Positions 10,554 through 63,670 are shown, counted from the first letter of the stretch. The stretch is 64,000 nucleotides of DNA from a virus (IMGVR_UViG_3300031998_000011:115397-179396); one strand, 5' to 3'. The notes: generated from the sequence alone by a model not told the origin. Made by a program: numbers and translations.

Positions 10554-11132
10554 ATGAAACATACCGACTTCTTCAACATGATAGTCCAGGAAAGCGGCGT
10601 CATCAAGACAGACGACGAAGGCAACAGCGTTTGCACATCCTGTCACGGTACAGGCAAGCATTACGAAGCATCTGTCCAGCATCATAAGAATTGCGCCTTC
10701 ATGAAGGCTGTCAACCAGCTCACGAAACTGATGCCTGACAAAAATGAACTTCAAGTTGAAAATTCGATCACGGTCGGCATGATGCTCCCGTATCTGTCCG
10801 AGATGTGCCCGGAGGAGATTGAGAAGGCGAAGGATCTGGCCGACTGCATGCAGGCTGCCGAGAACCCGGAGCAACGTGCTCATGTTGCAGACTTGGTCAC
10901 GTCCTGGTGCCGGTCGGTGAAACAGGGAATCCTGGCCGCTGTCATCCAGAGCGGTCTGCCGGACAGCAAGGCACTTCTTACGTTCCGCAACTATCTGATC
11001 TTCGAGAAGAGCAACACCAACGAGTCTCTGCGAATCGCCTTGGCGCTGTTGTCGCTGAACAACAACATAGAGGCGCTCCTGCCGACGTTTTATAAGCTGC
11101 TGACAGGCAAGTACCCGAATTACAAGCGCTGA
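10554..11132 (+). CDS. Hypothetical protein with CxxC...H...C putative Zn site
   Basis: GAGGA RBS; CTSCHGTG...HHKNC. Confidence 0.75.
   Translation: MKHTDFFNMIVQESGVIKTDDEGNSVCTSCHGTGKHYEASVQHHKNCAFMKAVNQLTKLMPDKNELQVENSITVGMMLPYLSEMCPEEIEKAKDLADCMQAAENPEQRAHVADLVTSWCRSVKQGILAAVIQSGLPDSKALLTFRNYLIFEKSNTNESLRIALALLSLNNNIEALLPTFYKLLTGKYPNYKR
10741..10764. repeat. Dispersed 23-bp palindrome, degenerate copy
   Basis: AAAATGAACTTCAAGTTGAAAATT; the right 18 nt are identical to 24200-24217. Confidence 0.7.
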
Positions 11133-11141
11133 CGCTGGCAC

Positions 11142-11152
11142 TTCTATAAGAA
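11142..11152 (+). promoter_or_regulatory. Putative late promoter TTCTATAAGAA
   Basis: Identical 11-mer upstream of the tail sheath gene (47480-47490). Confidence 0.55.
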
Positions 11153-11167
11153 TATAGGAGAACTCCA

Positions 11168-13042: not shown

Positions 13043-13050
13043 GGTTCGTC

Positions 13051-15330: not shown

Positions 15331-15360
15331 CGCACCGGATTTTATACGAGAGGTAAACAA

Positions 15361-16191: not shown

Positions 16192-16201
16192 GGAGACTTT
16201 T

Positions 16202-18016: not shown

Positions 18017-18024
18017 GGACAATC

Positions 18025-18717: not shown

Positions 18718-18726
18718 GGTGTCCCG

Positions 18727-19452: not shown

Positions 19453-19460
19453 GGAACAAC

Positions 19461-22207: not shown

Positions 22208-22303
22208 CGCAACCACTAATGTAACGACAAGTAACCCTTTCCTATAAAACCAACAAAGCTATTCCAATAGCAACCAAACATACAACACAGAGGAGTCCAT
22301 ATC

Positions 22304-23050: not shown

Positions 23051-23062
23051 ACATGACATTGC

Positions 23063-23103: not shown

Positions 23104-23119
23104 AATAAGGAGAACGCAC

Positions 23120-23842: not shown

Positions 23843-23853
23843 GGAGCCGAACT

Positions 23854-24192: not shown

Positions 24193-24193
24193 G

Positions 24194-24216
24194 ATTTTCA
24201 ACTTCAAGTTGAAAAT
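24194..24216. repeat. Dispersed 23-bp palindrome, perfect copy (intergenic)
   Basis: ATTTTCAACTT-C-AAGTTGAAAAT. Confidence 0.9.
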
Positions 24217-24219
24217 TAC

Positions 24220-24250
24220 GAGGACTCCACAACGGGGTCCTCTTTCTTTT
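24220..24250 (+). terminator. Intrinsic terminator
   Basis: GAGGACTCC-ACAAC-GGGGTCCTC followed by TTTCTTTT. Confidence 0.85.
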
Positions 24251-24293
24251 ATAGTAGAGTGATACGCGCAAGATACATAAGAGGAGACCAATT

Positions 24294-27200
24294 ATGCCCG
24301 AAGCACCTGTTTCACCGATACAAGCTGCCGGTACTGCGATGACCAATATCCGGCTCACACCGGATAAACCGACCAAGACTGCAGCTGACTGGGTACGCGA
24401 TATGCGCATGTCGCCCAGTGTGAACAAGACCACGACAGGTGTGGAGACTGCTTCTGTCACAGGCGATTTGATGCTGGCTACCTCGAAGAAGCTCCTCGGT
24501 ATATCCAGAGGTGAACGGGAGCCAGATCCGAAAGACTCTCTGGAGTTCCAGCGGTTCTACGGCCCAGCCGAATATTTTGCAGAGCATGTGCTCCGTGATG
24601 GTAACAAGCTGGGGCGCAATATCCTGTGGAAAGCAACAAACGTTGGCAACCTTGATTTCATGCCGGTGAATGCGCTGGATAAGCACATCAGCGACGTTTA
24701 CTACGACAGCAAGCTCGCCCAGATGATAGACGGTTCTTCTCCGCTGGAAACAGTGGATGCATCCTACAAGACCACCCGTATCGGTGAAGGCGGCGTCGGA
24801 GACCTCGATTCAGCTCCTGACGAGATGCGCACGGTGCAGCCGTCCTTTCTTGGTTTTGTAGATCCGGTCCGGTCGCCTGAAAGTTTTCGCGTCGGGTTGG
24901 ATGTCTATATGACTAAGAATGTTATGAAGGGATCCGACGGGAAATTGTATCAGAAATTCATCAATGCGCACACTGGCAAGGAAGAGCTGGTCGATTCCGA
25001 GACCATTGCCAAGTCCGTAGTGACGACGCCTGAGATGATGAACTCCAAGACCAAGTCGGTGTTCGCTATGGGAGGCCCGACTGGTGTTCGCATCGTACCG
25101 CGCAAGGACGTGGACTATTACCTGCCCAGAGCTGATGAAGCCTACAGCATGTCCTCCAACATGGTGACAATGCCGTCTGCAGTCATCGGCATGCGACTCC
25201 TGATGGGTTGCCTGCACCCGGATACAAATGTGCTGATTGCAGACGACCACAATATGATTCACATGATGCCGGCCAAGTATCTGAACGCGCACAAGCAGCG
25301 CATCCCAGGCATGACCAGCGAGTTCAAGACCGCCTGCTACGATATGCAGAACACAGTCGCCAAGCTGACACAGAAGCCGCGCTGGTTCAAGAAAATTGTC
25401 ACGAAATCCGGCCGAGTCCTCGTCACCAGTTACGACCATCGCTGGCCTGTTCTCATCAACGGTAAGATGACACTGGTCCAAGCGCGTGACCTGAAGCCGG
25501 GCGATACGATTCTGCGTTCTGCGTTCCGCGATGTTCCGAACCGACGCACGTTCCTGAACAAGCATCTTATCACGAAGGACGTCGCTTTCTTCCTGGGGCT
25601 TCTCTGCAGATCCGCCAAGAGCAACAAGCGCGGGTCTGTCACGTTCCGTTACAAGTGTGGTGCTGATGTCAGAATCCGTGATGCCATTCATTATGTCTGG
25701 GGTGACTGCAAGCCGGTGATCCGACAGTACAAGAAGGATGGGTTCTACTGCATGACTGTCCGTTGTGAAGCCATATGGCAGTATGTCGAAGACCACATCG
25801 GTTTCACCGACAGCACCCGCGATATCCCGACTGAGATTCTCAGCACATATGCCGAGATCGTTGCTGAGTTCCTGAATGGATATACCTGTGATGATACCAT
25901 GATGGGCACTGACAGCAACGAGGATATTTGGATTCTGTTCATTCCGAACATGAAGGTTCGCGATGAATTGTCCTTCCTGTTCGCCCGTATCGGTACTGAC
26001 ACGTTGTACCGCGATGCTCCTGGTGCAGATCCCAATCATGTCGAGATTGCGCTGAAGATCAGTGATACCTCCAGGCTCTGGAATGACATGTACAAAGACA
26101 CCATCAAGTACGTCTGGGAAGGTCCGCGCTGTCCTATCATGGTTGATATTGACATAAACGACAACATGTATGCAGTCGCCAACGGCATCGTGACGCACAA
26201 TTCCAAGTACCCGCTGCAGGCTATCTCACTGGACAATCGTGAGGCTCCTCTGGTCCGTACACTGGACGAAGCATCCGGAAAAGACATGTCTTCACTGGTC
26301 GGCAAGTTCCTGGGAGCCAGGTTTGCACCACAGGGTGGTGTTGTCACGGCTGTCCGTAAGGACCGCATCGACGTGATTTGGGACGACGGCAGTAAGGGTG
26401 CTGTTCCTCTGTATGTGAACTTCCCGATGAACGCCAAGGGTTTCATCAACAATACACCGGTCATCAAGGCCGGCATGCCTTTCAAGAAGGGACAGATTCT
26501 TGCCAGCTCCAACTACACGGACAAGGACGGCACGGCGGCTCTTGGTATCAACTTGAAGTCCGGTTGGATCAGCTGGAAGGGTGGCACTTACGAAGACGCT
26601 GTTGTCATTAGCGAGGAAGCCGCCAAGAAGTTGACCAGCACGACCATGTACAACACATCGGTCGATCTGGATAAGACCATCAGTCTGGGCAAGAAGAACT
26701 ACATCACCTGGAAACCTGCCGAGTACACAAAGGAGCAGATGGAACAGCTGGACGACAACGGCGTTGTCCGTCCAGGCACTGTGCTACATAAGGGCGACCC
26801 GATGATTCTGGCCGTCCGTACCAGCGAGCCAAGTCCAGGTACGATGGGTAAGCGCATCCTGACAGACCTGTCCGAGACGTGGGATCATGACCATGAAGGA
26901 ATCGTGACAGATGTGGTCAGAACACGCAAGGGTGTCAAGGTTTTCACGACAGTGACCGCGCCGGCAGAAATCGGTGATAAGATCGCCGGTCTGCACGGCA
27001 ACAAAGGCACGATTGCCCAGATTCTGCCGAAAGAACAGATGCCGCAGACCAAGCAGGGTACACCGCTTGATATCTGTTTCAGTCCTCTTGGAGTCACGAG
27101 CCGCAACAACACGGCGCAGCTTTATGAGGCGCTGCTTGGCAAGGTAGCAAAGAAGACCGGCCAGATACAGATCATGCCGGCGTTCTTCGAAGGCGACCTG

Positions 27201-29018
27201 CATGATTACGTGGAAGGCAAACTGAAAGAAGCCCATGTTCACGCAGACGATGACCTGGTCGATCCTGAGACCGGCCGCGAGATTCCAGGTGTTCTCACAG
27301 GATTCACCTATGTTCATAAGCTGAAGCACCTGGCTGAGTCCAAGTTGTCAGCCCGTGGCACTGGTGAATACTCTGCAGACGAAACACCCAGTGGAGGCGG
27401 CCGCACTGGCAGCAAACGCTTCGGTTCTCTTGAAACATCGGCACTCGTTGGACATCAGGCATTTGAGACGCTCAAGGACGCCAAGATCCTGCGCGGTCAA
27501 TCCAACGCAGACTTCTGGCGGTCCATCAGAACAGGCTCCATTCCTGTGATGCCCGGTGAGCCGCTGGTTCATAAGAAGTTCTTTGCACATCTCATCGGCT
27601 CTGGTGTGAACGTCCGCAAGACCCAGAAGGGCATCAGCACGTTTGCGCTTTCCAATGACGATGTGAATGAACTGACCGGACCAAGAGAGCTCCGCTCCAG
27701 AGACACGTATGAAGCCAAGAACTTCCGTCCAATCGACGGCGGTCTGTTCGGTCAGGACGTGTTCGGCATCAACGGCGACAAGTGGGGCTACATCAAACTC
27801 GATGAGCCGGTTCCGAACCCTGTCATGGAAGAACCACTTGCCAGACTTCTCCGTATGCCGGACAAGACTTTCATCGGTGTTGCGACCGGCAAGATCGAGT
27901 ACAATGGCATCCGTGGCCCGCTGCAGCTCCGTGATGCACTTGCGAACATTGACCTGAATAAGGAAGCCAAGAACGCGCTGATCGAACTGAAGAACGCTCC
28001 GACCAGTAAGAAGGATGCAATGCTGAAGCGCTACGTGGCAATAGAGCGCATGCGCCGTGCAGGTGTGAGTCCTGACAAGTACATGCTGGACAAAATCCCG
28101 GTGCTGCCTCCGCAGTTCCGTCCAATCACGTCGCACAACGGTCTGACGATGGTGGCTGACAGCAACTATCTGTATGCTCAGCTTCTGGATGCCAGAGATG
28201 ATGTGAGAGATGCGCGGGATCTACCGGAAGAGTTCCAGCAGCAGGCTCGTGAACGTCTGTACAAGGACTGGAAGGAATTGACCGGTCTGTACGAACCAGA
28301 AAACAAAGCCTTCAAGGCTAAGCATATACAAGGACTCCTGAAGTGGGCGCTGGGTGACAGTCCGAAGTTTGGTGCAGCGCAGAGAAAGGTTATCAGCTCT
28401 ACTGTAGACACCGTGGGCCGTGGCGTCATTACACCGAATCCCAGACTGAAACTCAATGAAGTCGGTATTCCGGAAGAGATGGCTTTCGGCATATTCTCGC
28501 CGCTGATCGAGCGCGGTCTGGTGCAGCGTGGCTACACTCCAGTGGAAGCCATAAAGCAAGTTCATGACAAGTCTCGGCAGGCTAAGGAACTGCTGACGGA
28601 AGTCATGAAGACACACCCGGTTATTATGAATCGTGCACCGACGCTGCATAAGCTGAGTGTCATGGCGTTCAACCCGGTACTTGTGACAGGACACGCGCTT
28701 CAGATCAATCCGAGTATCGTTGTCCCGTTCGGGGCCGACTTCGACGGTGACACCGTGAACATCCATGCGCCAATGTCTGACAATGCCCGTGAAGAGGCCA
28801 GACGTAAGATGTTCCCGGAGCGGAACCTGATTGCCATGAAGAACCGTCAGATAGCGTACAAACCTGAGAAGGAATACCTGCAGGGTCTGTACACTGCGAG
28901 CCATATTAACGATAAGTCCGGTGTACGCCCCATCTTAGTTAAGGATCTGAAGGAGGCGCTTGAGGCTTATCGCAAGGGACTCATCAACATTGACGATCCC
29001 ATTGACATTAAGAGCTAA
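24294..29018 (+). CDS. rpoBC: RNA polymerase beta(C)-beta'(N) fusion containing an intein
   Basis: Beta motifs: GEGG...DPVRSPES...VGL, YEDAVVISE, GDKIAGLHGNKG, SPLGVTSR, KLKH...SAR, KRFGSLE. Beta' motifs: PVLPPQFRP, NRAPTLH, catalytic GADFDGD (28731-28751). Confidence 0.95.
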   Translation: MPEAPVSPIQAAGTAMTNIRLTPDKPTKTAADWVRDMRMSPSVNKTTTGVETASVTGDLMLATSKKLLGISRGEREPDPKDSLEFQRFYGPAEYFAEHVLRDGNKLGRNILWKATNVGNLDFMPVNALDKHISDVYYDSKLAQMIDGSSPLETVDASYKTTRIGEGGVGDLDSAPDEMRTVQPSFLGFVDPVRSPESFRVGLDVYMTKNVMKGSDGKLYQKFINAHTGKEELVDSETIAKSVVTTPEMMNSKTKSVFAMGGPTGVRIVPRKDVDYYLPRADEAYSMSSNMVTMPSAVIGMRLLMGCLHPDTNVLIADDHNMIHMMPAKYLNAHKQRIPGMTSEFKTACYDMQNTVAKLTQKPRWFKKIVTKSGRVLVTSYDHRWPVLINGKMTLVQARDLKPGDTILRSAFRDVPNRRTFLNKHLITKDVAFFLGLLCRSAKSNKRGSVTFRYKCGADVRIRDAIHYVWGDCKPVIRQYKKDGFYCMTVRCEAIWQYVEDHIGFTDSTRDIPTEILSTYAEIVAEFLNGYTCDDTMMGTDSNEDIWILFIPNMKVRDELSFLFARIGTDTLYRDAPGADPNHVEIALKISDTSRLWNDMYKDTIKYVWEGPRCPIMVDIDINDNMYAVANGIVTHNSKYPLQAISLDNREAPLVRTLDEASGKDMSSLVGKFLGARFAPQGGVVTAVRKDRIDVIWDDGSKGAVPLYVNFPMNAKGFINNTPVIKAGMPFKKGQILASSNYTDKDGTAALGINLKSGWISWKGGTYEDAVVISEEAAKKLTSTTMYNTSVDLDKTISLGKKNYITWKPAEYTKEQMEQLDDNGVVRPGTVLHKGDPMILAVRTSEPSPGTMGKRILTDLSETWDHDHEGIVTDVVRTRKGVKVFTTVTAPAEIGDKIAGLHGNKGTIAQILPKEQMPQTKQGTPLDICFSPLGVTSRNNTAQLYEALLGKVAKKTGQIQIMPAFFEGDLHDYVEGKLKEAHVHADDDLVDPETGREIPGVLTGFTYVHKLKHLAESKLSARGTGEYSADETPSGGGRTGSKRFGSLETSALVGHQAFETLKDAKILRGQSNADFWRSIRTGSIPVMPGEPLVHKKFFAHLIGSGVNVRKTQKGISTFALSNDDVNELTGPRELRSRDTYEAKNFRPIDGGLFGQDVFGINGDKWGYIKLDEPVPNPVMEEPLARLLRMPDKTFIGVATGKIEYNGIRGPLQLRDALANIDLNKEAKNALIELKNAPTSKKDAMLKRYVAIERMRRAGVSPDKYMLDKIPVLPPQFRPITSHNGLTMVADSNYLYAQLLDARDDVRDARDLPEEFQQQARERLYKDWKELTGLYEPENKAFKAKHIQGLLKWALGDSPKFGAAQRKVISSTVDTVGRGVITPNPRLKLNEVGIPEEMAFGIFSPLIERGLVQRGYTPVEAIKQVHDKSRQAKELLTEVMKTHPVIMNRAPTLHKLSVMAFNPVLVTGHALQINPSIVVPFGADFDGDTVNIHAPMSDNAREEARRKMFPERNLIAMKNRQIAYKPEKEYLQGLYTASHINDKSGVRPILVKDLKEALEAYRKGLINIDDPIDIKS
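25209..26201 (+). mobile_element. Intein (331 aa) with degenerate LAGLIDADG-type homing endonuclease
   Basis: Starts CLHPDT, block B TSYDH, ends GIVTHN followed by Ser; removal restores RLLMG|SKYPLQA (beta RALMGxNMQRQA). Confidence 0.92.
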
Positions 29019-31139: not shown

Positions 31140-32987
31140 ATGCGGACTACGCTTGGCAGAGAACTGATCCGGTCGAAGTTGCCGGAGAAGTACAAAGGTT
31201 GGGCTGATAAGGTTCTCGACAAGAAGAACCTGACAGAACTCATGACCAAGATGGCCCTGGATGACCCTGACGGATACGTCGATGTCCTCCAGGACCTGAA
31301 CAATCTGGGTCAGACCGTCGTGTCCCTGTATGGCCGGAATACGGCTCTTCCGTTTGAAGACATCAAGATTTCAAAAGGTGTCAAGAGCCTGAACAAGCAG
31401 CTTCATGAGGTCATCGACAAGGTTCTGAATGATGACAATCTGACTGAGAAACAGAAGGAAGCCAAGATTACTGATCTCTGCTATAAGTACACCAAGAAGG
31501 TCGAGGACGCTGTATTCGCAGATAACGACCGGCGCTCAACTGCTTTCGCTTCACAGATCAACTCTGGTTCCCGTGGCAATAAGACGCAGCTCATGCAGAT
31601 GCAGTTCGGCAACATGGGTATGAAAGATGCCCTGAACCGTGACATGCCCTACATGATGATCGACCCCTATGCAATCGGCGCATCGCCGATGGGCTATTGG
31701 GTATCTGCTTCCTCCGGTCGCAAAGGTTACTACGACGTCCAGATGGCAACCGGCCAGTCCGGTTATCTTGGCAAGCGCGTGACTGCTGCAACACACGACA
31801 CTGTCATCAGTGAAGATGATTGTGGCACCACAGATACAGGCATCCCGTTCCCTGCGAACAGTGAGAAGAATATCGGTGCAGTCCTGCTTCGTCCTTGGCA
31901 TAAGTATCCGGCAGGCACAGTCGTGACTGGCAAGATGGTTGGCGAGGCTGATGAAGGCGAGGAAATGGTTCTTCGCAGCCCAATCACCTGCAAGAGCCGA
32001 CACGGAATCTGTGCCAAGTGCAGCGGTCTCGGCGAGAACGGTAAGTTCCCTGGCATCGGCGAGTTCGTTCCCATGAACGCAGCTCGTTCCTTTGTTGAAG
32101 TCATGACGCAGAGCTCAGTCGGTTCCAAGCACAAGGGCGGTGTCGGCGGCCGCAAGGTTGTCGATCCAGAAGGTGAAGATCAGCCCACCGGCTTCCGTGC
32201 AGCTGAGCGCATGTTCACTGTTCCGAAGAACTTCCCAGGCGGTGCTGTCCTGACACCTGTTGATGGTACCGTCACTAATATCCAGGCAGCGCCGCAGGGC
32301 GGCAGCTACATCACAGTTGGCGGTTCCACTGTCTATGCCTCGCCGGCTCGCACCATCAAGGTCAAGGTCGGTGACAAAGTCTATGCTGGGGACGTGCTGA
32401 CCAACGGTGTTCCAAACCCTGCCGACATTGTCGGTTACAAGGGACTCGGAGAAGGTCGCCGGTATTTCACCAACAAATTGAACTCAGTTCTCAAGGATCT
32501 CGGCTGGGGTACGGACCGCCGCAACATAGAGTCGTTCTCCAGAGCGTTCTTGAACAAGGTGGAGATTACGGACCCGGACGGTTTCGGCAACTATCTCCCA
32601 GGGGACATTGTGGACTACAGTGCAGTGGCCGCAGACTGGGAGCCGCGTGAGAACTCTATTACCACCAAGGCTGACAAGGCACTGAACATGTACCTGGAAA
32701 AGCCTGTATTGTACTACAGCGTTGGAACACGAATTACGCCCGAAGTGGCGAACACGCTGAAGAAGTACAAATTCGACGACGTGACGGTCTCCGATAAGGA
32801 ACCGCCATTCTCGGCGAAGTTCCTGCGGCCGACAGAGGCGCTGCAGCACAGCCAGTACTGGTTGCCCCGTATGGCGGGCGAACGGTTGCGCGACAGTCTC
32901 TTCGACGCAGCACGTCAGGGAATCACTGATCCCTATGACTCACCAAGTTATGTAGACAAAATAGTGGCACAGCCATTCAAACCATAA
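31140..32987 (+). CDS. rpoC: RNA polymerase beta' subunit, C-terminal fragment
   Basis: SGSRGN; bridge helix GRKGYYDVQMATGQSGYL; EDDCGT; RSPITC...GICAKC Zn site; trigger loop AARSFVEVMTQSSVGSKHKGG. Confidence 0.92.
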   Translation: MRTTLGRELIRSKLPEKYKGWADKVLDKKNLTELMTKMALDDPDGYVDVLQDLNNLGQTVVSLYGRNTALPFEDIKISKGVKSLNKQLHEVIDKVLNDDNLTEKQKEAKITDLCYKYTKKVEDAVFADNDRRSTAFASQINSGSRGNKTQLMQMQFGNMGMKDALNRDMPYMMIDPYAIGASPMGYWVSASSGRKGYYDVQMATGQSGYLGKRVTAATHDTVISEDDCGTTDTGIPFPANSEKNIGAVLLRPWHKYPAGTVVTGKMVGEADEGEEMVLRSPITCKSRHGICAKCSGLGENGKFPGIGEFVPMNAARSFVEVMTQSSVGSKHKGGVGGRKVVDPEGEDQPTGFRAAERMFTVPKNFPGGAVLTPVDGTVTNIQAAPQGGSYITVGGSTVYASPARTIKVKVGDKVYAGDVLTNGVPNPADIVGYKGLGEGRRYFTNKLNSVLKDLGWGTDRRNIESFSRAFLNKVEITDPDGFGNYLPGDIVDYSAVAADWEPRENSITTKADKALNMYLEKPVLYYSVGTRITPEVANTLKKYKFDDVTVSDKEPPFSAKFLRPTEALQHSQYWLPRMAGERLRDSLFDAARQGITDPYDSPSYVDKIVAQPFKP

Positions 32988-36189: not shown

Positions 36190-37906
36190 GATATCTTCTT
36201 CCGATGAGCGCAAGCTGACGAACGCCATCGAAAGTGCTGCCATTCTGGCAAGCAATGACGCATCCCGTGACAGGAACCAGCTCCTTGCGGATGAACTCAA
36301 GAAAGAGGGCGTGGATTCCCGTTTCGCAAAAGTGGCGTCCTGTGCTTTCAACAAGCGTGTCACAGTGCTGACTTTCAAGAAGACGGCAGATGAGCACAAG
36401 GCTGATCCTTTCGAACTGACGGATGGGGACAAGGTCCTGGAACTGATGACTGGCGAAGCGCTGGAAAAGGCTGCGGCTCTCACTGCCGCCGATTTCGAGA
36501 TCACTGTTACCGGCGCTCCGATGCAGAAGGCAGCCTCTGCCGAGGCTCCTGCCCGTGCCTGCTTTGAGGACACCGTGGACTACGACCGGCTGGTCAAGCA
36601 CGTCGAGAACGTCATGACCAAGAACGCGGCCGCCATCTACGAGGTGCTCCAGAAGCAGCGCGATGTCGAAGCCGTTGCTGATTCTCTGAAGACGGAACTG
36701 GCTGATCACTTCATCAAGGATGCCAGCGCTTCCTATGCGTTCTCCAGTCTGATCAATCACTACGGCGACCGCTTCCAGAACGCCATCCAGGATAAGCTGC
36801 CTGAACATACGGACTGGACAAAGACTGCGGCAGACGCAATTTTGTTCAATGATCCAGTCTTCGACAAGGCCGCCAAGATGATCGAGATGCACGAAGCCAA
36901 CGAGAATCTGAAGGCGGTGCTGGACAAGTACGGCGAAGGGCTCACAGAGTTCTGCAAGTCGGCGGCCATGCTGGGAGATTTCGTCCAGAAGGCCGAGTCT
37001 GGCTTTGTCAAAATGGCGGCTCCACGTATGGCTGCGGAACTTGCTGGTGAGCTGGGTCTCACACCGGCCGCTCTGGGGAACTATGCAGTTGGCGCCATCG
37101 ACAACATGGTCAACGGTGTCGCGAATACAGCCGGTAACGCTTTCTCCAATGCCTATGCTCTGTACCAAGCTGGCAATGCGGCGCACATGGCTCCGAACGA
37201 AATCCTCGATGCAGACTTCCTGACGAAGGATCGCTACAGAGATCGTCTTCTTGGCTGGTCCGACATGACAGCTGATCCTCAGTTCGCCATGTATCCTGCC
37301 GAGCAGGTGTTCCTCGCCACACAGAAAGCGATGGACATGGATACCACACTGGAACGTCCGGACAAGCGCGAGGTGCTTCGCTCTTACGTGGCCCAGCTCC
37401 TGGCTCAGAATAATCGGCTCTCCACGGCGGATATCGCGGCTCTGGCTCAGACTCTTCGCGGTCTTACTAGTGCTGATGAACATGGTGCTCAGCAGATCGC
37501 TGTCAAGTCTGTTAAGGGCATGGATGAAACAAAAGCACCGGAGGCACCGGTTATCAAGGCTGTTGTTGAGGGTCGTCGCGAAGTCAAAGGTGAAGAAAGA
37601 GCCGGTCAGGTTCTGGACACCATCAAAGAGATGCGTGAAGACTACGAGAAAAAGACTGACAAGGCTCGTGAGTCGGAAGGCAACAATGATCGTACACAGC
37701 GCGAACGTGCGAGAGCTCTGGCTGATGCACAGAATGCTCGAAACCAGTTCCTGACGGATACCATGCATATTCAGATCAGAGCCAACCCACAGGGACAGAT
37801 TACATATTCACCGGGTCGTAACCAGCAACCTCTTACACAGGCTGATATCGACAATATCCTGGCGGCTGCCGAACGTGCCAATCTTGTTCCGGCTCTTCCG
37901 GCGTAA
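36179..37906 (+). CDS. Helical head-module protein with many K-x-A sites
   Basis: FKKTA, LEKAA, MQKAA, WTKTA, FCKSA, FVKMA. Confidence 0.7.
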   Translation: MENKISSSDERKLTNAIESAAILASNDASRDRNQLLADELKKEGVDSRFAKVASCAFNKRVTVLTFKKTADEHKADPFELTDGDKVLELMTGEALEKAAALTAADFEITVTGAPMQKAASAEAPARACFEDTVDYDRLVKHVENVMTKNAAAIYEVLQKQRDVEAVADSLKTELADHFIKDASASYAFSSLINHYGDRFQNAIQDKLPEHTDWTKTAADAILFNDPVFDKAAKMIEMHEANENLKAVLDKYGEGLTEFCKSAAMLGDFVQKAESGFVKMAAPRMAAELAGELGLTPAALGNYAVGAIDNMVNGVANTAGNAFSNAYALYQAGNAAHMAPNEILDADFLTKDRYRDRLLGWSDMTADPQFAMYPAEQVFLATQKAMDMDTTLERPDKREVLRSYVAQLLAQNNRLSTADIAALAQTLRGLTSADEHGAQQIAVKSVKGMDETKAPEAPVIKAVVEGRREVKGEERAGQVLDTIKEMREDYEKKTDKARESEGNNDRTQRERARALADAQNARNQFLTDTMHIQIRANPQGQITYSPGRNQQPLTQADIDNILAAAERANLVPALPA

Positions 37907-37918: not shown

Positions 37919-39376
37919 ATGATGAAGAAAAGTTTCCTCCCTGAGTCCTTCAACTTCGATGTGCCTCCTGTTGAGATCATTGGCGTTGGCAGCAAAGGTC
38001 TGGACAAGACTGCGATGGTGAAACGTGCCAGTGCTTTCGATGATGTCATCGAGAAGCTGGAGAAGAAAGCCAATCGCACCTACCTCCATGTTATTACGAC
38101 TGGAGCCTATGAAACGTACGGCGCCAATCTGAACTCTGACGGATGGAACGGAGAGTCGTTTGAACTCAAGTTCCCGCATCCTGAGAACATGGCGAAGAAA
38201 GCGATGGTTCTGGACGGCGGCCTTTCCAAATATCATGATATGACCTATATGAAGGATGGTGCTGTGTACCAGGAACACCAGACCAAGACAGCTGGTGTTG
38301 ATCCGTCAGGTGAGATAATCGCCGCCAAGTACAACCCCATGATGAAACGTGGTGAGCTCATCATTGCAGTCGATACCGAGAAATGGGCTTCCAGGCTTCA
38401 GAAGAAAGCCAAAGGTGAGAACATCTACCTGAGCATTGGGGCGTCTGTGCCGTACGACGTGTGCAACATCTGCGGAAGAATTGCAAAGACAGCTTCCGAA
38501 CACTGCAGTCACTTCAAGCATCATCGCGGCGAAGTCTATGATTGTGGTGAGCGTGCCTGTGTTATGAACGACCATCCGGACTTCTACGACATTTCTGGTG
38601 TGAACGTGCCGGCCGACAAGATTGCGTTCGTGCTCCAGGAAGTTGGTCACGGCGACAAGCTGACAAAGACCAGCTCCCTGCACGACATCATGCAGCAGGC
38701 GACGCAGGCAGTCGGTGTCCGTCCGCCAATGGTACTCACGAAGGCCGCCATGATTCTGGGCAAGCTGGCTCGTATGGAGAAGCAGATCGAAGGTATTGTC
38801 GAAGGTGACAAGAAGCCGGACAAAGAGGCATTTGACCATGACGACGATGCCGAAAAAGATTTTGAACTTGAAGTTCAAAATTATCCTGCCGATGAGGTGA
38901 TCGACGGTGCAAACCGCAAAGGCATCCTTCTGACTCCGGGCATGCTGTTCAGACTGCTCGGTAAGGAATGCTCTGATCCAGACAATGCTCTAAAGGATTG
39001 TGACGACGAGAGTTGTGGCGATCTGTCCTGCATGATGCGTGAACTGGAGGATGACGAGGATGTCAATGACGAGCTGCTGGACGGTTCTTTCGACCAGCAT
39101 CCGCCTGTGGATCTGAACCTCGACAGCATTCTGGAGAAGTTCATTCCGATGTTCGGGATGACGGACCCTGCTGTCAATACACGGGTTATCCGCATCACAA
39201 TCGTCGGCGCTCCGAAACACGGTACTGTAGACAAGAAGGCGTCTCTGAATAAGTTCGCACAGGAAGCCCTGCGCCGGACATATGCCAGATACCTCATCAG
39301 TTTTGCTGCTCAGAACAACGAAAGTACCTGTATGAACGCCCTCATGAAAATAGCTGGAATCGGGAAACGCGGCTGA
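37919..39376 (+). CDS. Prohead maturation protease (HK97/herpes-type fold) with Zn-finger insertion
   Basis: YQEH, GEII, LSIG (catalytic Ser candidate), CNICG...CSH, FYDISGVNVPAD; directly upstream of scaffold and capsid genes. Confidence 0.7.
   Translation: MMKKSFLPESFNFDVPPVEIIGVGSKGLDKTAMVKRASAFDDVIEKLEKKANRTYLHVITTGAYETYGANLNSDGWNGESFELKFPHPENMAKKAMVLDGGLSKYHDMTYMKDGAVYQEHQTKTAGVDPSGEIIAAKYNPMMKRGELIIAVDTEKWASRLQKKAKGENIYLSIGASVPYDVCNICGRIAKTASEHCSHFKHHRGEVYDCGERACVMNDHPDFYDISGVNVPADKIAFVLQEVGHGDKLTKTSSLHDIMQQATQAVGVRPPMVLTKAAMILGKLARMEKQIEGIVEGDKKPDKEAFDHDDDAEKDFELEVQNYPADEVIDGANRKGILLTPGMLFRLLGKECSDPDNALKDCDDESCGDLSCMMRELEDDEDVNDELLDGSFDQHPPVDLNLDSILEKFIPMFGMTDPAVNTRVIRITIVGAPKHGTVDKKASLNKFAQEALRRTYARYLISFAAQNNESTCMNALMKIAGIGKRG
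38859..38881. repeat. Dispersed 23-bp palindrome, perfect copy (intragenic)
   Basis: ATTTTGAACTT-G-AAGTTCAAAAT. Confidence 0.9.
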
Positions 39377-45877: not shown

Positions 45878-46795
45878 ATGGCCGACAGTATCTTCACATC
45901 CTTTGTCTGTTCCATCCTGCCGAATAATCACAGGCAGCTATCCTGGAACGTACTTGCAGGACTGACTTTCCCTGATAATTTTCAACTTGAAGTTCAAAAT
46001 TCCAGAGCAGGTGGTCCTTGGGAGGTTCTCGCTCCGGACGTGAAGAATGTCTGTACTTGGGAAGATCCCAGACTGCGGAACTACAACAAGTACATGAACG
46101 AGCACTACAGGCTTCGTCTGTATGTCCCTGGTGAACAGGAAGGTGACGAGCCCCTGCAGGAGTATTTCTCCCCGATTGTCGCGGCCGGCACTACCGAGGC
46201 GTGGCCATTCAGCGCCGAAGCCAAGAATGTAGTTACACAGGTCGAGAAGCAGATCGAGATATCTGGTTGCACCGGTGTGCTGCTTAAAAAGAAGCACTGG
46301 GGTGTTCGGTGCCCGGACTGCACAGACTTCGATAACCAGAACACTGTGAATGAGCACTGTCCTCGTTGTCTGGGTACTGGGTACGACGGTGGCTACTACC
46401 AAGGTATCAGCATGTCTGTCCTGAAGGATACACCACAGACAGGTGAGGAACAGAGTTTTGATGCTGTTGAGGGGCATGAGACAATTACCGGCAAGTGCGT
46501 TGCGTTCCCCTGGATCCGTTACGGTGATGTCTGGGTCGAGGATGGCACAAACAAGAGGTTTTCCGTACATAAAGTCACACCGGCATCTGTGTATAAACAG
46601 ACTGTGCTGATTTATGCTTTCGAGATGCGCAAAATCGAGTACACAGACATCATGTACGAAGTGCCTGCCGATGAAAAAGTTGAGCTCAAAGACATCTATC
46701 AGTCTGATCAGGTTGCATATACACCAGAACTCGAACATGTGCTGGAAGAGCAGGCTATGTCTGACTGGCAGAAAGCACTGGAGGAGCAGTTGTGA
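45878..46795 (+). CDS. Probable neck/head-closure protein with CxxC...CxxCxGTG Zn motif
   Basis: CPDC...CPRCLGTGYDGGY; position. Confidence 0.5.
   Translation: MADSIFTSFVCSILPNNHRQLSWNVLAGLTFPDNFQLEVQNSRAGGPWEVLAPDVKNVCTWEDPRLRNYNKYMNEHYRLRLYVPGEQEGDEPLQEYFSPIVAAGTTEAWPFSAEAKNVVTQVEKQIEISGCTGVLLKKKHWGVRCPDCTDFDNQNTVNEHCPRCLGTGYDGGYYQGISMSVLKDTPQTGEEQSFDAVEGHETITGKCVAFPWIRYGDVWVEDGTNKRFSVHKVTPASVYKQTVLIYAFEMRKIEYTDIMYEVPADEKVELKDIYQSDQVAYTPELEHVLEEQAMSDWQKALEEQL
45978..46000. repeat. Dispersed 23-bp palindrome, consensus copy (intragenic)
   Basis: ATTTTCAACTT-G-AAGTTCAAAAT, extendable to AATTTT...AAAATT. Confidence 0.9.
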
Positions 46796-52474: not shown

Positions 52475-52475
52475 C

Positions 52476-53419: not shown

Positions 53420-53431
53420 GGCATTACACAA

Positions 53432-56197: not shown

Positions 56198-56200
56198 CAT

Positions 56201-59170: not shown

Positions 59171-59202
59171 GACAGGACGTTACAGGTAAATAGAGGTGAC
59201 AC

Positions 59203-60009: not shown

Positions 60010-60368
60010 AGCACTCCAAGGAAATCCTGCTCCTGGCTACCAAGATAGAACGTGCGGCTCTGCACACGATTCTGTCCGCTGTCTCCAGGCGGTACCAGAA
60101 AGAAGTGGCGCCCACAATGCCGTCCAGAGCAGAATCGGATTCCAAATATGCCGAAGAACTGCAGGGATTTGGAGTCAATTCCACAAAGTCCACAGCAGAA
60201 ACAGCGACGGCAGTGCGCTCAGTGCATGAAGCCTCCCGTGCCCAGCGAGACGTTGAAATCATCAATACAGGGCACAAGGGTCTGATGCTGGCATGCCTGG
60301 TGAATGCTGTGATGCGCTCTGAGAAACTGGAACGTGAGATCAAAGCAATCGAGGAGTCTCCGCAATGA
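60006..60368 (+). CDS. Hypothetical protein
   Basis: ATGA overlaps on both sides. Confidence 0.65.
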   Translation: MKHSKEILLLATKIERAALHTILSAVSRRYQKEVAPTMPSRAESDSKYAEELQGFGVNSTKSTAETATAVRSVHEASRAQRDVEIINTGHKGLMLACLVNAVMRSEKLEREIKAIEESPQ

Positions 60369-60739
60369 AAGACCTCCAGATTATACCGGCTGAAGAAGGC
60401 GCTGTCGAGTTCTATCCGAGAACAGCATCTGAGGACACAGGGCTGATGCTTCTGCAGAGGCTCTATGTCATGCTCTTCAGTGACGGTGCTACAGGCTACA
60501 GACAGGGCGATGGCGGATACACGCTGTGGAACTTTATTGAAGGCGGAAATATCCCAATCAAGGAAGTCTTCGATGCAGTCCTGGCTACCAGTTGTGCCTC
60601 TGCTGTGAACATGCTGGATGAGTCAGACAGAGAACTTATAGCCAGCTTCACCGGTGAGGGCTTCGAGGATGGCTCTGCATTACTCACGCTGATACTGCAA
60701 GACGGAACAACAGTGAAAGGAAAGCTGAACAATGGCTGA
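60365..60739 (+). CDS. Probable gp25-like baseplate wedge/sheath initiator
   Basis: 124 aa, just upstream of the baseplate J-like gene; LLQRLYVMLFS...G pattern. Confidence 0.5.
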   Translation: MKDLQIIPAEEGAVEFYPRTASEDTGLMLLQRLYVMLFSDGATGYRQGDGGYTLWNFIEGGNIPIKEVFDAVLATSCASAVNMLDESDRELIASFTGEGFEDGSALLTLILQDGTTVKGKLNNG

Positions 60740-62279
60740 TTACATAGAACCCACACAGAGCTCATTCAATAATGCCGAGAACACGGCAGCCGATGCTCTG
60801 GCGCAGTCGTCTCCCAACCTGATCACAAAGGCTGGTTCCGTCATCAGAGAACTCATTGTCCGGCCGGCTGCCTACCTTATGGCCTGGTCCAGGGATAACT
60901 TCCTGAACATGCTGGCGCAGTCCAGTGTCATGTATCTGAAAACATCCCAGGCTACAGAGAACCCAGTCGCTGATATGGTGGCATCCAATTACTTTGTCAC
61001 CAGGCTTCAGGGGACCAGCGCACGCGGTATCCTGACGCTTACACTGGCCCAGCCGGTCCTGCGCATTACAAGAGGCTCGCAGTTCGTCGTAGGCGGTGCT
61101 ACGATGGTGACGCCTGAGCAGTACCTGATTACCAATGGCGATACATCGGGAACAACATCGAATTTCACATACATCAAGTCAGTTCCCTACGGGGACTACT
61201 GGATTGCCAATGTTCCTGTTGTTAGCGCGATGCCTGGTCAACTGGAGCTTCCGGTTGGCAGCTCTGTCACAATCGGGTTCAGTACCAGCATTATCATTGA
61301 TGCAGAATTAACCAGCCCGGTTACTGGTGGTTCCAACGTTGAAACAGATGCCGAACTCATGGCTCGCGCCGAATACAACACTGCAGAGTCTGGCATCGGT
61401 TCTTTCTATGGACTGCAGAAGAAGTTCTCCAAGGCACCTGTCGCTGTGCTTGGTTTATCTGTTGCAGCTGGTGAAGACACACCGCTGCTGCGCTCCAGAT
61501 TCAACAACGTGAACATCAATCCGGGCGGCATCGTGGACTGCTATGTGAAGACAGCAAAGCAGGCGACAACAGACAATTTCCAGGTCACATGCACCAGGGT
61601 ATCCACAGAAGACGGTGACACATACGTCGGCGAAGTGCCAGCCAAGTGTGTCCTGAATGTGAACTCCATCATCGTTGGTGGTGCTACGATCAAGACGTTT
61701 ACACAGCGGTTTACTTCCAGCAGCCCGTCTGTGCCGGATGAAGGAGCGCGGCTCTCTATTCTGCAGAAGACCTATGTTGTATTCGCTGCCGGCAACATCA
61801 CCGGAGCTACAGTGGATGCCACAGTGTCCTGCACCTACATACCAGGTATCGAAGCATTGCAGCAGTACATCGACGCCGACGAGGAGCATTTCATTGGCCA
61901 GGATACGCTGGTCAAGGCTGCTGTTCCCGTTGAGATTTCCCTGCGCTGCGGATACTCAGCCAGTGCCATGCTGGCAGATGATCAGGTCGCGCTTCTGCGA
62001 CAGACCATCGCGGACTACATCAACAGTATCCCTGTAGGTACCAGAGCCATCAACTTCTCGGACATTCGAACTACATGCGCCACTGCTGTTCCAGCCGCAG
62101 ACCTGCGTCTACCCTGTGTGATGACGGGACGGGCCAGCACCAAATCAGGGGCCGTGGACACCTTCTACAACAACACAGGCATATTCGATATCGCGGATCC
62201 CGCCAACGATGATTTCTGGGACTTCCAGGCTTGCTTCTTCAGCATCACAGTTGAGAATATCAGGGTGGAGGCCGTATGA
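60732..62279 (+). CDS. Baseplate J-like wedge protein
   Basis: GSVIRELI, RLQGTSARG, VTGGSNVETDAELMAR, GIVDCYV. Confidence 0.85.
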   Translation: MADYIEPTQSSFNNAENTAADALAQSSPNLITKAGSVIRELIVRPAAYLMAWSRDNFLNMLAQSSVMYLKTSQATENPVADMVASNYFVTRLQGTSARGILTLTLAQPVLRITRGSQFVVGGATMVTPEQYLITNGDTSGTTSNFTYIKSVPYGDYWIANVPVVSAMPGQLELPVGSSVTIGFSTSIIIDAELTSPVTGGSNVETDAELMARAEYNTAESGIGSFYGLQKKFSKAPVAVLGLSVAAGEDTPLLRSRFNNVNINPGGIVDCYVKTAKQATTDNFQVTCTRVSTEDGDTYVGEVPAKCVLNVNSIIVGGATIKTFTQRFTSSSPSVPDEGARLSILQKTYVVFAAGNITGATVDATVSCTYIPGIEALQQYIDADEEHFIGQDTLVKAAVPVEISLRCGYSASAMLADDQVALLRQTIADYINSIPVGTRAINFSDIRTTCATAVPAADLRLPCVMTGRASTKSGAVDTFYNNTGIFDIADPANDDFWDFQACFFSITVENIRVEAV

Positions 62280-63670
62280 ACTGGGTAAGACGGATCAGGT
62301 TCCTTCTGGGTGCCTTCTGGTACCGGATTTTCGACGACCAAGATTTTGTACTTGGAGTTGAATTTTTCCTCAGCGTGTTCTACAAGTGTACGGGCTACCT
62401 GCTCGATAACTGGGTTGCCGGCATGTTTCCAATGCTTCCGACGGTGTATCCAGACGATATGCCGTTTGCTGTTCTCCTGGACCTTAACTCTTTGCATCGT
62501 GAATGGTTTACGTGGAAACAGTTTGTCAACAAGGACGTGACAGTAGCCGCTGGTCAGCATATCGGGAAGCCGACAGACGACGACTATGTGACACTGCACA
62601 GCGACGGCAGAGGCTGGGTTATGGATGTTGTGAGCAACACTCAGGAACCGGATTATCTGGTCGATCACCTGTACCGTGGAGAACTTGCCCTGACAAATGG
62701 GGCTGATTTCATATTTTCCGGCAATCAGATCCTGTTCTTCACAGACCCGACCAAGCTCAATATTCCGGCTGTGAAGGTTACGACTGCGGATGGTGAGCTG
62801 AAAGTCTATTTACAACTTACTGGAATTGTCGAGCGAGTTGTAAATAGCTACGATGCTATCAGTGGGTTCATGTCGCCGGAACTGAATGACTGTGCTTCTG
62901 TTGTTTGGGATATTCACCAGAACGGGGCTACCTACTACAATGCAAAGAAGTTGCTTGCGGCTGTGACAGACAGTGTTGTCTGTGACGAGGAAGGTGCCAT
63001 CAACGAACTTTGGCAGGAACAGGGCTGGAACTTTGCACGTGTGAACGACAAGATCTACGAATCGAAACTGCCATGCAATTTGCATGCCGGCGATGATGTA
63101 AGGAAGGGAACCGTGCTGTTTGGCACGATGAAGTTCTACAAGGGTTCGGAGAAACCGGCTGCCAGCGAGATTCCTGGTGTTCGGGTTCGTACGGATGCCG
63201 GTGAGCTGGTCGCGGAGAACAGCACCAAGGATCTGGTCAACATAACTGGAACGACAGCTAATGTGCTGCCCTTGACAGGCGATGCTCCGACACTTCTGAA
63301 GTATCTGAACATCTGTATCCATAACAGTCTGAATGAGAAATGCCCATATATACAGGTACAATCGGACGATCCGGACATGCCAGCCGGCAAGATAAACCCG
63401 TACGACTTTGTGATGCGCCAGTTACGTAGAGGGCGCACATGTGCTGTCCGTCTGACGGCGATTTCACTCACCAAACTGGAAGCCGCGATTCAGGTACTAC
63501 GTAAGAGCACGAATCTCGGCGGCCTCCTGACTCTTTATGTAAAGGATTCGACCGACACTGCTAATGTAACCCTGTCGGGCTTTACAGCCGACGCTGGAAT
63601 GGGCGTCGTCGCTGTGGACGCCACCGTAACGATACAGGGACAAGCAGCAGAGGCCAGAATCCTTCCATGA
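62276..63670 (+). CDS. Baseplate wedge protein (follows J)
   Basis: 464 aa; LGAFW start; position. Confidence 0.55.
   Translation: MNWVRRIRFLLGAFWYRIFDDQDFVLGVEFFLSVFYKCTGYLLDNWVAGMFPMLPTVYPDDMPFAVLLDLNSLHREWFTWKQFVNKDVTVAAGQHIGKPTDDDYVTLHSDGRGWVMDVVSNTQEPDYLVDHLYRGELALTNGADFIFSGNQILFFTDPTKLNIPAVKVTTADGELKVYLQLTGIVERVVNSYDAISGFMSPELNDCASVVWDIHQNGATYYNAKKLLAAVTDSVVCDEEGAINELWQEQGWNFARVNDKIYESKLPCNLHAGDDVRKGTVLFGTMKFYKGSEKPAASEIPGVRVRTDAGELVAENSTKDLVNITGTTANVLPLTGDAPTLLKYLNICIHNSLNEKCPYIQVQSDDPDMPAGKINPYDFVMRQLRRGRTCAVRLTAISLTKLEAAIQVLRKSTNLGGLLTLYVKDSTDTANVTLSGFTADAGMGVVAVDATVTIQGQAAEARILP
62343..62365. repeat. Dispersed 23-bp palindrome, degenerate copy
   Basis: ATTTTGTACTTGGAGTTGAATTT; 4 mismatches to consensus. 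Confidence 0.45.

Follow-up and report, generated by a model that had tools for sequence, protein, structure and literature searches.

The palindromic site and its copies in the window

The stretch of DNA analysed here (the window) comprises 64,000 nucleotides of a 179,396-bp phage genome (G000), and carries five dispersed copies of a 23-bp near-palindrome, ATTTTSAACTTSAAGTTSAAAAT, i.e., ATTTT-S-AACTT-S-AAGTT-S-AAAAT, in which S is C or G. The 23-mer consists of three TT-S-AA pentamers repeated with a 6-bp period. Both this geometry and the spacings of 13.5, 14.7, 7.1 and 16.4 kb between the copies had been correctly described in the original prediction, a reading of the window sequence. The copies and their neighbouring signals are the following:

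10741..10763, unstranded: site copy AAAATGAACTTCAAGTTGAAAAT with 3 mismatches and left arm AAAAT instead of ATTTT; within a 192-aa ORF (10554-11132, +), read K-N-E-L-Q-V-E-N; 23/23 identical in G001
24194..24216, unstranded: perfect-palindrome copy, intergenic, exact match
24220..24242, plus strand: terminator-like hairpin GAGGACTCC..GGGGTCCTC with a T-run, beginning 3 nt after the 24194 site
24250..24256, plus strand: TATAGTA(G), a -10-like promoter word, one of nine copies in G000
38859..38881, unstranded: perfect-palindrome copy within a 485-aa head-module ORF (37919-39376, +), residue 314, read D-F-E-L-E-V-Q-N
45978..46000, unstranded: exact copy within an ORF of ~305 aa (45878-46795, +), residue 34, read N-F-Q-L-E-V-Q-N
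62343..62365, unstranded: degenerate copy ATTTTGTACTTGGAGTTGAATTT with 4 mismatches within a 464-aa ORF (62276-63670, +), residue 23, read D-F-V-L-G-V-E-F

Exact matches to the consensus are found at 24194, 38859 and 45978, and dinucleotide shuffles of the sequence yielded 0 matches. A sequence scan recovered all five copies where the original prediction had placed them, that at 62343 being backed by related phages as well. This four-mismatch copy is considered valid because G002, G003 and G004 carry an orthologous site at the identical codon position, and because it is 23/23 identical in G001 although the surrounding block is only ~77% identical. Orthologous sites also occupy the matching place of the 10741 copy in G002, G003 and G004. 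The 24194 copy ends 77 nt 5′ of the ATG of a 1574-aa virion-type RNA polymerase beta-like gene (24294-29018), and its left edge is the exact start of homology to both G001 and G002; orthologous sites lie upstream of the equivalent gene block in G002 and G003. The 38859 copy, located ~560 nt upstream of an Ala/Glu-rich scaffold-like gene, has orthologues in G002, G003 and G004, and the synonymous differences that separate its host gene from that of G001 stop at the site. The 45978 copy has orthologues in G002 and G003. The genes harbouring these last two copies had been named protease and neck, respectively, names for which no Pfam or PDB matches were obtained; relatives annotate the first merely as a structural protein.

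Among the window copies, only those at 24194 and 38859 are the perfect palindromes originally described. In most copies the first and third S positions carry the same base, so that the two halves are unequal.

Concerted change of the sites among related phages

Across the whole genome, 13 secure copies and one doubtful copy were counted (0 in shuffles), including the further copies predicted to exist beyond the window, which number nine. Three copies are exact and 12 have three mismatches or fewer, while a reversed control word and shuffles both gave 0; the site is also the most repeated 11-13-mer of the genome. The closer relative G001 (65-97% identical) matches all 14 copies at 23 of 23 bases, whereas their 100-nt flanks are 67-99% identical. 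The more distant G002, G003 and G004 carry 11-15 sites each, with the common layout ATTTT-NNAC-N5-GTNN-AAAAT and with inner bases changed genome-wide, the inner triplet being CAC or TAC where G000 has AAC; AAC, CAC, TAC and TCC occur as specificity variants across the five related genomes. The site consensus co-varies among related phages, and copies occur both between and inside genes. For at least seven sites of G000, an orthologue lies at the corresponding position in G002, and six site slots are common to three or four genomes.

The copies inside genes provide a second view of this process. The four conserved intragenic copies are all read in one frame, D-F-x-L-x-V-x-N, so that four unrelated proteins share this peptide, whose residues shift with the motif among relatives in a non-conservative manner (E to L to I). 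Wherever the motif is altered the encoded residues are altered as well, so that selection acts on the DNA and not on the proteins, as had been proposed. The conservation seen in relatives exceeds what the original prediction had anticipated, since it is the amino acids that change with the motif and not the motif that decays under constant residues. The strength with which a DNA signal can overprint coding sequence is illustrated here by four unrelated proteins forced into a common eight-residue peptide, and this peptide mutates in step with the signal. Selection on the sites as double-stranded DNA is strong; they change in concert, and their positions are conserved.

The site is two-fold symmetric, and neither its arms nor its centre display significant polarity. 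In the aligned copies, information content falls to background outside R-23mer-Y, and no conserved start region was found 3′ of the site. The symmetry does not reflect base pairing within a single strand: positions 6 and 18 are complementary in 2 of 13 copies versus 6.5 expected, and the pairing frequency of variable mirror positions equals or falls short of that expected if the halves were independent. An RNA or DNA hairpin or intrinsic terminator was ruled out, given that the halves vary independently without compensatory stem changes and that predicted folding is weak (mean RNA folding energy of the G000 23-mers, -1.6 kcal/mol; -1.6 to -4.3 across the three genomes tested). A miniature mobile repeat was discarded as well, since the flanks are unrelated and orthologous places are occupied in four genomes. 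The broader proposal that the conserved entity is an RNA or ssDNA hairpin (terminator, processing site or hairpin promoter), the peptide itself or a small mobile repeat could draw on the near-palindromic word and on the single reading frame in four unrelated proteins; with 8 of 13 copies non-coding and the peptide changing along with the DNA, this proposal is largely refuted and retains hardly any credibility.

It has also been considered that the sites serve replication, either as multiple origins or as inverted pairs of DnaA-box-like 9-mers bound by the host initiator. The relaxed DnaA-box consensus is TTWTNCACA, and DnaA boxes are nearly universal. The G002 half-site TTTTCCAC fits this consensus in 8 of 9 positions, the sites are dispersed, and the phage carries T4-like recombination and replication genes. 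On the other hand, TTTTSAACT, the half-site of G000, lacks the C6 and A9 conserved in the box, the site consensus differs between closely related phages, no DnaA C-terminal domain was detected by six-frame or protein searches of the phage, and bacterial genomes contain virtually no exact copy of the G000 word, all of which makes a replication role highly improbable. When compared with one genome for each of ~185,000 prokaryote species, the exact word gave a single, chance-level match, which rules out a common host site.

The two-fold symmetry fits the dimeric or oligomeric DNA-binding protein that had been postulated, and the 23-mers are very probably protein-binding sites of some kind. From the concerted change we infer that the binder is encoded by the phage. 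The 23-bp word would be a cis-acting site for one such protein of two-fold symmetry, a dimer or higher oligomer, whose sequence preference would have co-evolved with all its sites, and which seems to recognise the A/T arms together with the NAC/GTN triplets while ignoring positions 6 and 18.

Position relative to genes, terminators and promoter-like words

The genome is 93% coding and 97% of its genes point in one direction. In the window, most copies (4 of 5) do lie within genes, as originally noted, but this predominance does not extend to the whole genome, where 5 of 13 copies are intragenic and the other 8 are intergenic or at the edges of genes; the extragenic enrichment has P ~4e-7 (a hand recalculation after one copy was reassigned to a gene). 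Strong terminator-like hairpins are located within 0-5 nt of copies, on either side, at genome positions 91949, 96851 and 139590, and copies adjoining such hairpins are also present in G002 and G003. The structure of the hairpin at 24220 is kept in these two relatives with different stem sequences. Several copies display a terminator-then-site or site-then-hairpin order just 5′ of genes, and copies are found where the recombination/replication module and the RNA polymerase block begin. Since the sites are enriched between genes and next to terminators, control of transcription stays alive, contrary to the original view that ordinary promoter control was not involved.

Our tentative preference, held at clearly less than even confidence, is that the bound protein acts on transcription at module borders. 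About 13 sites punctuate the almost wholly one-directional genome of 179 kb, never more than 20 kb apart, and many of them are located at gene-module borders against terminator hairpins. As an operator, roadblock or insulator acting genome-wide, the bound protein may strengthen or control the points at which transcription units end and begin. Several observations argue against such a function: some 40 candidate proteins and the domain searches gave no binder, the sites keep no fixed distance from, or side of, the promoter-like words, and the four deeply conserved copies lie well within genes, 67-950 nt from the gene start, with no obvious promoter there on which an operator could act. In addition, even spacing and extra sites in grown intervals would suit a distance-limited or architectural function at least equally well.

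We do not think that the site itself is a promoter. Under this alternative, which we regard as unlikely, the sites would be promoters or entry points for the virion-type multisubunit RNA polymerase, evenly spread to drive transcription and perhaps DNA entry. The phage indeed encodes beta- and beta'-like polymerase genes, whose homologues in Salmonella phage Arash are abundant in virions; terminator/site/hairpin layouts occur just upstream of genes, nearly all of which run one way; and the co-evolution of motif and protein resembles that of T7-type promoters, which co-evolve with their polymerases. Moreover, in other polymerase-carrying large phages the early promoter is the most conspicuous AT-rich repeat. 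According to a published review, the early promoters of such phages are distinguished by a conserved AT-rich motif (PMC7598289). The early-promoter motifs of phiKZ and AR9 (PMC7598289) and the 23-bp T7-type promoters are likewise lineage-specific, conspicuous AT-rich words, and the present phage shares a packaged RNA polymerase with phiKZ and AR9 and a one-directional genome with T7; those motifs, however, are asymmetric, centred near -10 and placed upstream of operons, whereas the present site is symmetric with several copies deep in genes. The symmetry without significant polarity or a conserved start region speaks against a promoter, as do the conserved copies that lie 67 and 100 nt inside gene 5′ ends and 400-590 nt before the next gene. 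The genome also possesses two other promoter-like words, both asymmetric and restricted to the plus strand, at least one of which is unchanged across most relatives. The first of these, TATAGTA(G), represents a promoter class of its own, not to be equated with the palindrome; the word TATAGTAAG has 9 copies in G000, plus strand only and all intergenic, and is also found in G001, G002 and G004, whereas G003 has a single copy on the plus strand. The second class consists of CTTAAT-N17-CATAAT cassettes. Two sigma-family genes are present in the phage.

A further alternative, in our opinion very unlikely, is that the sites are multiple pac-like sequences for the small terminase, allowing headful packaging to be initiated at numerous points along branched concatemers. 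Small terminases bind DNA sequence-specifically and evolve fast, and G000, G002, G003 and G004 each have a conserved site at a distance of ~0.7-2.2 kb from the minus-strand terminase block, with a further site inside the terminase gene of G004. The assemblies also behave as circular or permuted: the sequence of G001 is permuted relative to that of G000, and a 55-bp overlap is present in the assembly of G003. Nevertheless, we know of no phage with ~13 pac sites, the 153-aa gene beside the large terminase has no family match, and a packaging role predicts neither positional conservation in structural genes nor closeness to terminators.

Spacing, candidate binders and comparable systems

The regular spacing suspected in the original prediction is borne out, the sites of G000 being spread more evenly than random (largest gap 18.9 kb, P = 5e-5). 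In G002 and G003 the evenness reaches P ~1e-3 each, although the statistics of these relatives are not independent owing to shared ancestry. Where an interval has grown, an extra site is present (G002 90094, G003 48071). Such a need for a site every 20 kb or less would be explained by an architectural protein of limited range, for which the sites would act as anchor, bridging or loading points in compacting, tethering, partitioning or coating the genome. In its broad form this coincides with the first reading of the window. The symmetry of the site and the deep intragenic positions conserved across four genomes are consistent with an architectural role, which we nonetheless consider rather improbable: no ParB_N, ParA-type ATPase or HU/IHF-like gene was found, nor a tyrosine integrase or anything else pointing to a plasmid or prophage stage, and such a role does not predict the enrichment outside genes and at terminators, even if non-coding DNA is simply easier to occupy. 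A more specific version, also unlikely, is a genome-wide, distance-limited array in which a protein of no known DNA-binding family loads or anchors at one or more sites per ~20 kb and organises the one-directional genome. It might, for example, position copies of the RNA polymerase packaged with the DNA, or a factor that bridges or slides, and in this way allow any segment of the permuted genome that happens to be the first to enter to be read or pulled in. If true, this would represent a new kind of viral chromosome organisation and not a repressor-operator set.

Six-frame searches of the whole 179-kb genome, in which control genomes were positive, gave no match to ParB_N (PF02195) at E <= 0.1, and none was obtained at the same threshold for ParA-type (Walker) partition ATPases (PF13614). 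HU/IHF and HTH_3 domains were not detected by six-frame or protein searches of the phage, nor were a Cro-type gene, a recognisable repressor or a tyrosine integrase. Among ~40 candidate proteins, the only DNA-binding family encountered was that of one MerR/HTH_17 protein. The HTH gene at 9929-10210, originally put forward as a candidate binder, encodes this excisionase-like protein, which has no homologue in the site-bearing G003 and G004. Taken together, the original interpretation stands with respect to selection on DNA, symmetry, additional copies, conservation and even spacing, while partition of the ParB type, left with no partner, and the HTH binder do not.

Little is understood about large phages that carry a multisubunit RNA polymerase of their own, and the present clade is known only from metagenomes and distant isolates such as Arash. 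The site set offers a clean handle on a trans-acting protein, with few, long, symmetric sites and a natural series of specificity variants. If functional, the even spacing points to a distance-limited process on the viral chromosome, candidates being the insulation of transcription units, the loading of a factor of limited range, or organisation for packaging or entry; to our knowledge, there is no example of such a process in lytic phages.

Among known systems, the stoperators of Cluster A phages such as mycobacteriophage L5 are asymmetric 13-bp sites in one orientation, carried in dozens of copies between and inside genes by temperate phages with a repressor and an integrase; they are recognised by one phage protein, and their consensus shifts with that protein among relatives. 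The present sites resemble them as one short, dispersed site inside and between genes with a lineage-shifting consensus. Through their protein, stoperators affect the transcription that runs across them, as is proposed for the present set. Unlike stoperators, the present site is 23 bp long, symmetric and evenly spaced, with ~13 copies in 180 kb, and the asymmetric, one-orientation site and the temperate life style with a recognisable repressor that are typical of L5 and P1 were not observed (no tyrosine integrase, HTH_3, ParA or ParB). In phage P1, the C1 operators are asymmetric 17-mers, and in the Lpa-dependent late promoters a short inverted repeat replaces the -35 element, with a -10 hexamer at a fixed distance. 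Many operators or activator sites are dispersed over the large P1 genome, much as the putative operators are here, but no such -10 element follows the present site. Lastly, the RK2 KorB operators (OB) and the phage N15 centromere sites, already cited in the original prediction and 13-16 bp long, are bound by dimeric ParB-family proteins partnered with ParA-type ATPases, domains not found in the present genome. Like these sets of about a dozen scattered palindromes at variable distance from promoters, and in keeping with dispersed short palindromes of the ParB/parS or KorB type, the related phages carry 13-15 near-palindromic sites per genome, each 23 bp in length as opposed to 13-16 bp.

The 23-bp site and its genomic setting

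A pattern search for ATTTTSAACTTSAAGTTSAAAAT bore out the five copies of a dispersed 23-bp near-palindrome that the original prediction had located in the window, as well as their mismatch counts: exact matches lie at 24194, 38859 and 45978, and copies with three and four mismatches at 10741 and 62343, respectively. No match was present in 100 dinucleotide-preserving shuffles. The whole 179,396-bp phage record (G000), of which the window forms the final 64 kb, contains 12 copies at up to three mismatches and none of a reversed control word, and its most repeated 11- to 13-mers come from the 23-bp word.

Copies of the site in G000 (genome positions, with window positions in brackets)
Three mismatches or fewer: 17225, 20461, 37901, 65280, 83638, 91949, 96851, 110778, 126137 (10741), 139590 (24194), 154255 (38859), 161374 (45978)
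Four mismatches: 55221, 177739 (62343)

Conservation around the copies comprises a purine before the 23-mer and a pyrimidine after it and then ends, which indicates a compact site rather than a piece of a longer repeat. A common host site was ruled out, since the exact word occurs once, at chance level, across the genomes of about 185,000 prokaryote species (one genome each).

The plus strand of G000 carries about 97% of the predicted genes, and coding sequence takes up about 93% of the DNA. The gene set includes two matches to phage RNA-polymerase beta-subunit families, two sigma-70-family genes, and Mre11/Rad50-like, helicase, DnaB-like, primase, family-A polymerase, UvsX-like and NAD-ligase genes; a tyrosine integrase was not found in G000. 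By megablast, no close relatives were detected among deposited phages, and the nearest deposited relatives of the polymerase proteins, at about 30% identity, are those of Vibrio phages D69, D181 and D148 and of Salmonella phage Arash. In Arash virions, homologues of the two polymerase proteins are among the most abundant proteins detected (PMC10585845). The same paper does not mention promoters or repeats, and the Arash genome has neither the 23-bp word nor its arm layout.

Landmark features of G000
Window 24294-29018: RNA-polymerase beta-subunit family match, 1574 aa
Window 31140-32987: RNA-polymerase beta-subunit family match, 615 aa
L071:1229-3563 (genome 21229-23563), minus strand: two ORFs of 153 and 619 aa, which fill the stretch
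L070:15995-18410: six tRNA genes (Ser, Tyr, Met, Met, Thr, Pro)

A match to the large-terminase ATPase domain was obtained for the 619-aa ORF, whose counterpart in the related phage G002 is 84% identical. The palindrome at genome 17225 sits among the six tRNA genes, immediately upstream of a 155-aa membrane-protein gene.

Conservation and concerted change among relatives

The closest relative, G001 (178,489 bp), was recovered by scanning IMG/VR with the 23-bp word and represents a permuted, reverse-complement form of G000, built from blocks of 65-97% identity. Each of the 14 copies matches its G001 counterpart at 23/23 bases, with 100-nt flanks 67-99% identical; the copy at genome 177739 is exact even though its block is only about 77% identical. 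Within a 485-aa head-module gene, third-codon-position differences between both genomes amount to about one per five bases upstream of the site and are absent through the site and the following 30 nt. At genome 139590, G001 similarity starts precisely at the left edge of the site. A tie between the sites and the mosaic breakpoints of the pair was rejected, as this copy (window 24194) is the only one that coincides with such a breakpoint.

Three further relatives were retrieved by protein-based searches. The G000 word itself is absent from them, and each carries its own version of the layout.

Versions of the site in related genomes (identity refers to the 319-aa putative major capsid protein)
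G002: 164 kb; 87% identity; ATTTTC(C/T)AC-YYSRR-GT(G/A)GAAAAT; 15 sites
G003: 176 kb; 64% identity; ATTTT(A/C)TAC-N5-GTANAAAAT; 13 sites
G004: 176 kb; 61% identity; halves ATTTTATCC, ATTTTGTAC and ATTTTATAC around a centre of 4 or 5 nt; 11 sites

Neither the A/T arms nor the AC/GT dinucleotides vary between genomes, and the base preceding AC is altered at every site within a given genome. The simplest account of such a lineage-specific, genome-wide motif change is a binder encoded by the phage. For at least seven of the G000 sites, G002 has a counterpart in the orthologous position, and six site slots are common to three or four genomes.

Slots common to three or four genomes
192-aa gene: internal site
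485-aa head-module gene: internal site
305-aa gene: site at residue 34
464-aa gene: site at residue 23
Polymerase beta-like gene: upstream site
Minus-strand terminase block: adjacent site

Although one slot borders the terminase block, a function as multiple packaging sites is regarded as improbable. In G004, 22-bp forms with a 4-nt centre (e.g., 228, 15435, 27248, 94631, 170187) stand alongside 23-bp forms, so the binder would tolerate a one-base shift in half-site spacing. Most G004 sites pair two unlike half-sites (ATTTTATCC with ATTTTGTAC). The four-mismatch copy at genome 55221 (AAATTCCACTCCAAGTTGAAAAT, L072:15221-15243) is a doubtful 14th member of the G000 set; its left half is G002-like and its right half G000-like, and it has no orthologue in G002.

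The G002 record is labelled a provirus; it starts within the DNA-polymerase gene and is devoid of the Mre11/Rad50/helicase block, and the label is apparently a product of trimming and not a sign of integration. The layout of the site is absent from G005 (42% identity in the same capsid protein), whose top repeats are long elements of a different kind. About 13 of these elements were observed (e.g., 2261, 9200, 159809, 191787), each with AAGAAAGTGAATTGCTGG followed some 90 nt on by AAGGTTCATCGACTA..GTACCCGA; they resemble a structured insertion family and may be introns.

Selection, location and spacing of the copies

Four unrelated proteins carry the conserved intragenic slots, each read in the same frame as D-F-x-L-x-V-x-N, with x residues that vary along with the motif; the peptide in the 485-aa gene is DFELEVQN, DFLLQVEN, DFILKVEN and DFILEVQN across the four genomes. 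It had been proposed that amino acids kept with the palindrome lost would speak against a DNA-level role. The relatives display the opposite, keeping the site while the protein changes, and on these sequence comparisons selection is on the DNA. The copy at genome 65280 lies in a gene frame that requires TSA to be TCA, which explains its three C's and its mismatches.

At the variable mirror positions, Watson-Crick pairing is no commoner than expected for independent halves (positions 6/18 of G000 are complementary in 2/13 copies versus 6.5 expected), and as RNA the 23-mers fold weakly, with means of -1.6 (G000) and at most -4.3 kcal/mol (relatives). Both observations argue against a hairpin and suggest that the halves would act as two separately read half-sites, in the manner of a dimeric protein bound to duplex DNA. 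The halves are preferentially unlike, which may perhaps reflect mere avoidance of a perfect palindrome. A mobile element, in turn, is disfavored by the end of conservation at the bordering purine and pyrimidine. Taken together, hairpin, peptide and mobile readings are scarcely credible, and the copies are very probably recognised in duplex DNA by a single symmetric protein that co-evolves with them in specificity.

Of the 13 secure G000 copies, five lie inside genes and eight are intergenic or at gene edges, versus 6.8% of non-coding DNA (binomial P ~4e-7, recalculated by hand). The relatives follow the same trend, somewhat overstated by the simple gene calls used. Three copies touch strong terminator-like hairpins, as judged from a scan and individual folds; a simple custom terminator finder was set aside because it was unspecific, with as many minus-strand as plus-strand hits. 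At genome 91949 and 96851 the left arm of the site is the T-run of the hairpin, and at genome 139590 a hairpin with its T-run begins 3 nt past the site. This site-then-hairpin order is repeated in G002 and G003 with different stem sequences. Furthermore, the copy at 37901 marks the start of the recombination/replication module, that at 110778 precedes a cluster of terminator-promoter cassettes, and that at 139590 precedes the polymerase block. A transcription-unit operator, roadblock or insulator is the highest ranked of the functional readings and is put forward tentatively.

The copies also tend to be evenly spaced. Taking G000 as a 179-kb circle with 14 sites, the largest gap is 18.9 kb (P = 5e-5 by simulation), and the largest gaps in G002 and G003 are 19.3 and 21.7 kb (P ~1e-3), these tests not being independent because the genomes are related; the test was not significant for G004 or for the strict 12-site G000 set. 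The interval between the polymerase and head-gene slots grows from 14.7 kb in G000 to 18.7 kb in G002 and 31 kb in G003, and the extended interval contains an extra site within the enlarged polymerase gene. A literature word search for evenly spaced palindromes in phages returned nothing relevant. An architectural or range-limited organising role ranks second and is rather less likely than the transcriptional one.

Promoter-like words, known systems and candidate binders

Two other promoter-like words were found in G000.

Other promoter-like words in G000
Window 10223, 24250, 42741 and genome 14274, 15980, 17891, 63645, 92596, 102498; plus strand: TATAGTAAG
Genome 110893-116858, including window 848 and 1462: seven units of terminator, CTTAAT, 17 nt and CATAAT

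The nine copies of TATAGTAAG are exclusively intergenic and on the plus strand, often directly after a terminator hairpin, and the one at window 24250 lies 33 nt downstream of the site. This word also appears in G001, G002 and G004 and, as a single plus-strand copy, in G003; it probably serves one of the phage's sigma factors as a -10-type promoter word. The CTTAAT-N17-CATAAT units are limited to a 6-kb run of small genes (genome 110.9-116.9 kb) that starts 115 nt past the palindrome at genome 110778. The palindrome keeps no fixed distance or side relative to either word, lying 56 nt to several kb away on either side. The presence of these words, along with the two sigma genes, makes the palindrome less likely to be the promoter itself, and a polymerase promoter or entry site ranks third, as an unlikely option. 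A sigma-70-type reading, with TTGAAA as -35 or SAAAAT as -10, was discarded for want of a correctly spaced partner element.

Among known systems, the site set most resembles the stoperators of L5-like mycobacteriophages, the C1 operators dispersed over phage P1 and the KorB operators of plasmid RK2. In contrast to all three, the present site is long and symmetric, its host genome is an apparently virulent, polymerase-carrying phage, the set is evenly spaced, and it comes without a recognisable repressor or ParB protein. With these features, it would stand apart within the known dispersed sets of cognate binding sites, with a minority chance of being something altogether new.

Six-frame searches of G000 detected no ParB_N, ParA-type ATPase, HU/IHF, HTH_3 or DnaA C-terminal domain, and replication or DnaA-like sites are considered very improbable. 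About 40 proteins, drawn from minus-strand genes, site-adjacent genes and small core genes, were scanned against Pfam and PHROGs. Apart from polymerase, sigma, replication and terminase families, these scans gave a single MerR/HTH_17 protein and no further DNA-binding family; ranking core proteins by charge gave no clear candidate. The minus-strand HTH gene at window 9929-10210, which the original prediction had put forward as a binder, turned out to be MerR/HTH_17 excisionase-like, and its homologues are confined to G001 and G002, which rules it out for G003 and G004. A 301-aa gene (L074:1445-2350, genome 81445-82350) adjoins sites in several relatives. It was excluded because the binder must match between G000 and G001 and differ in G002, and this gene is 99% identical between G000 and G002, whose motifs differ. 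Its identity to the G001 counterpart is only 56%, and since G001 is otherwise much closer to G000 than G002 is, these values suggest a recent exchange between lineages.
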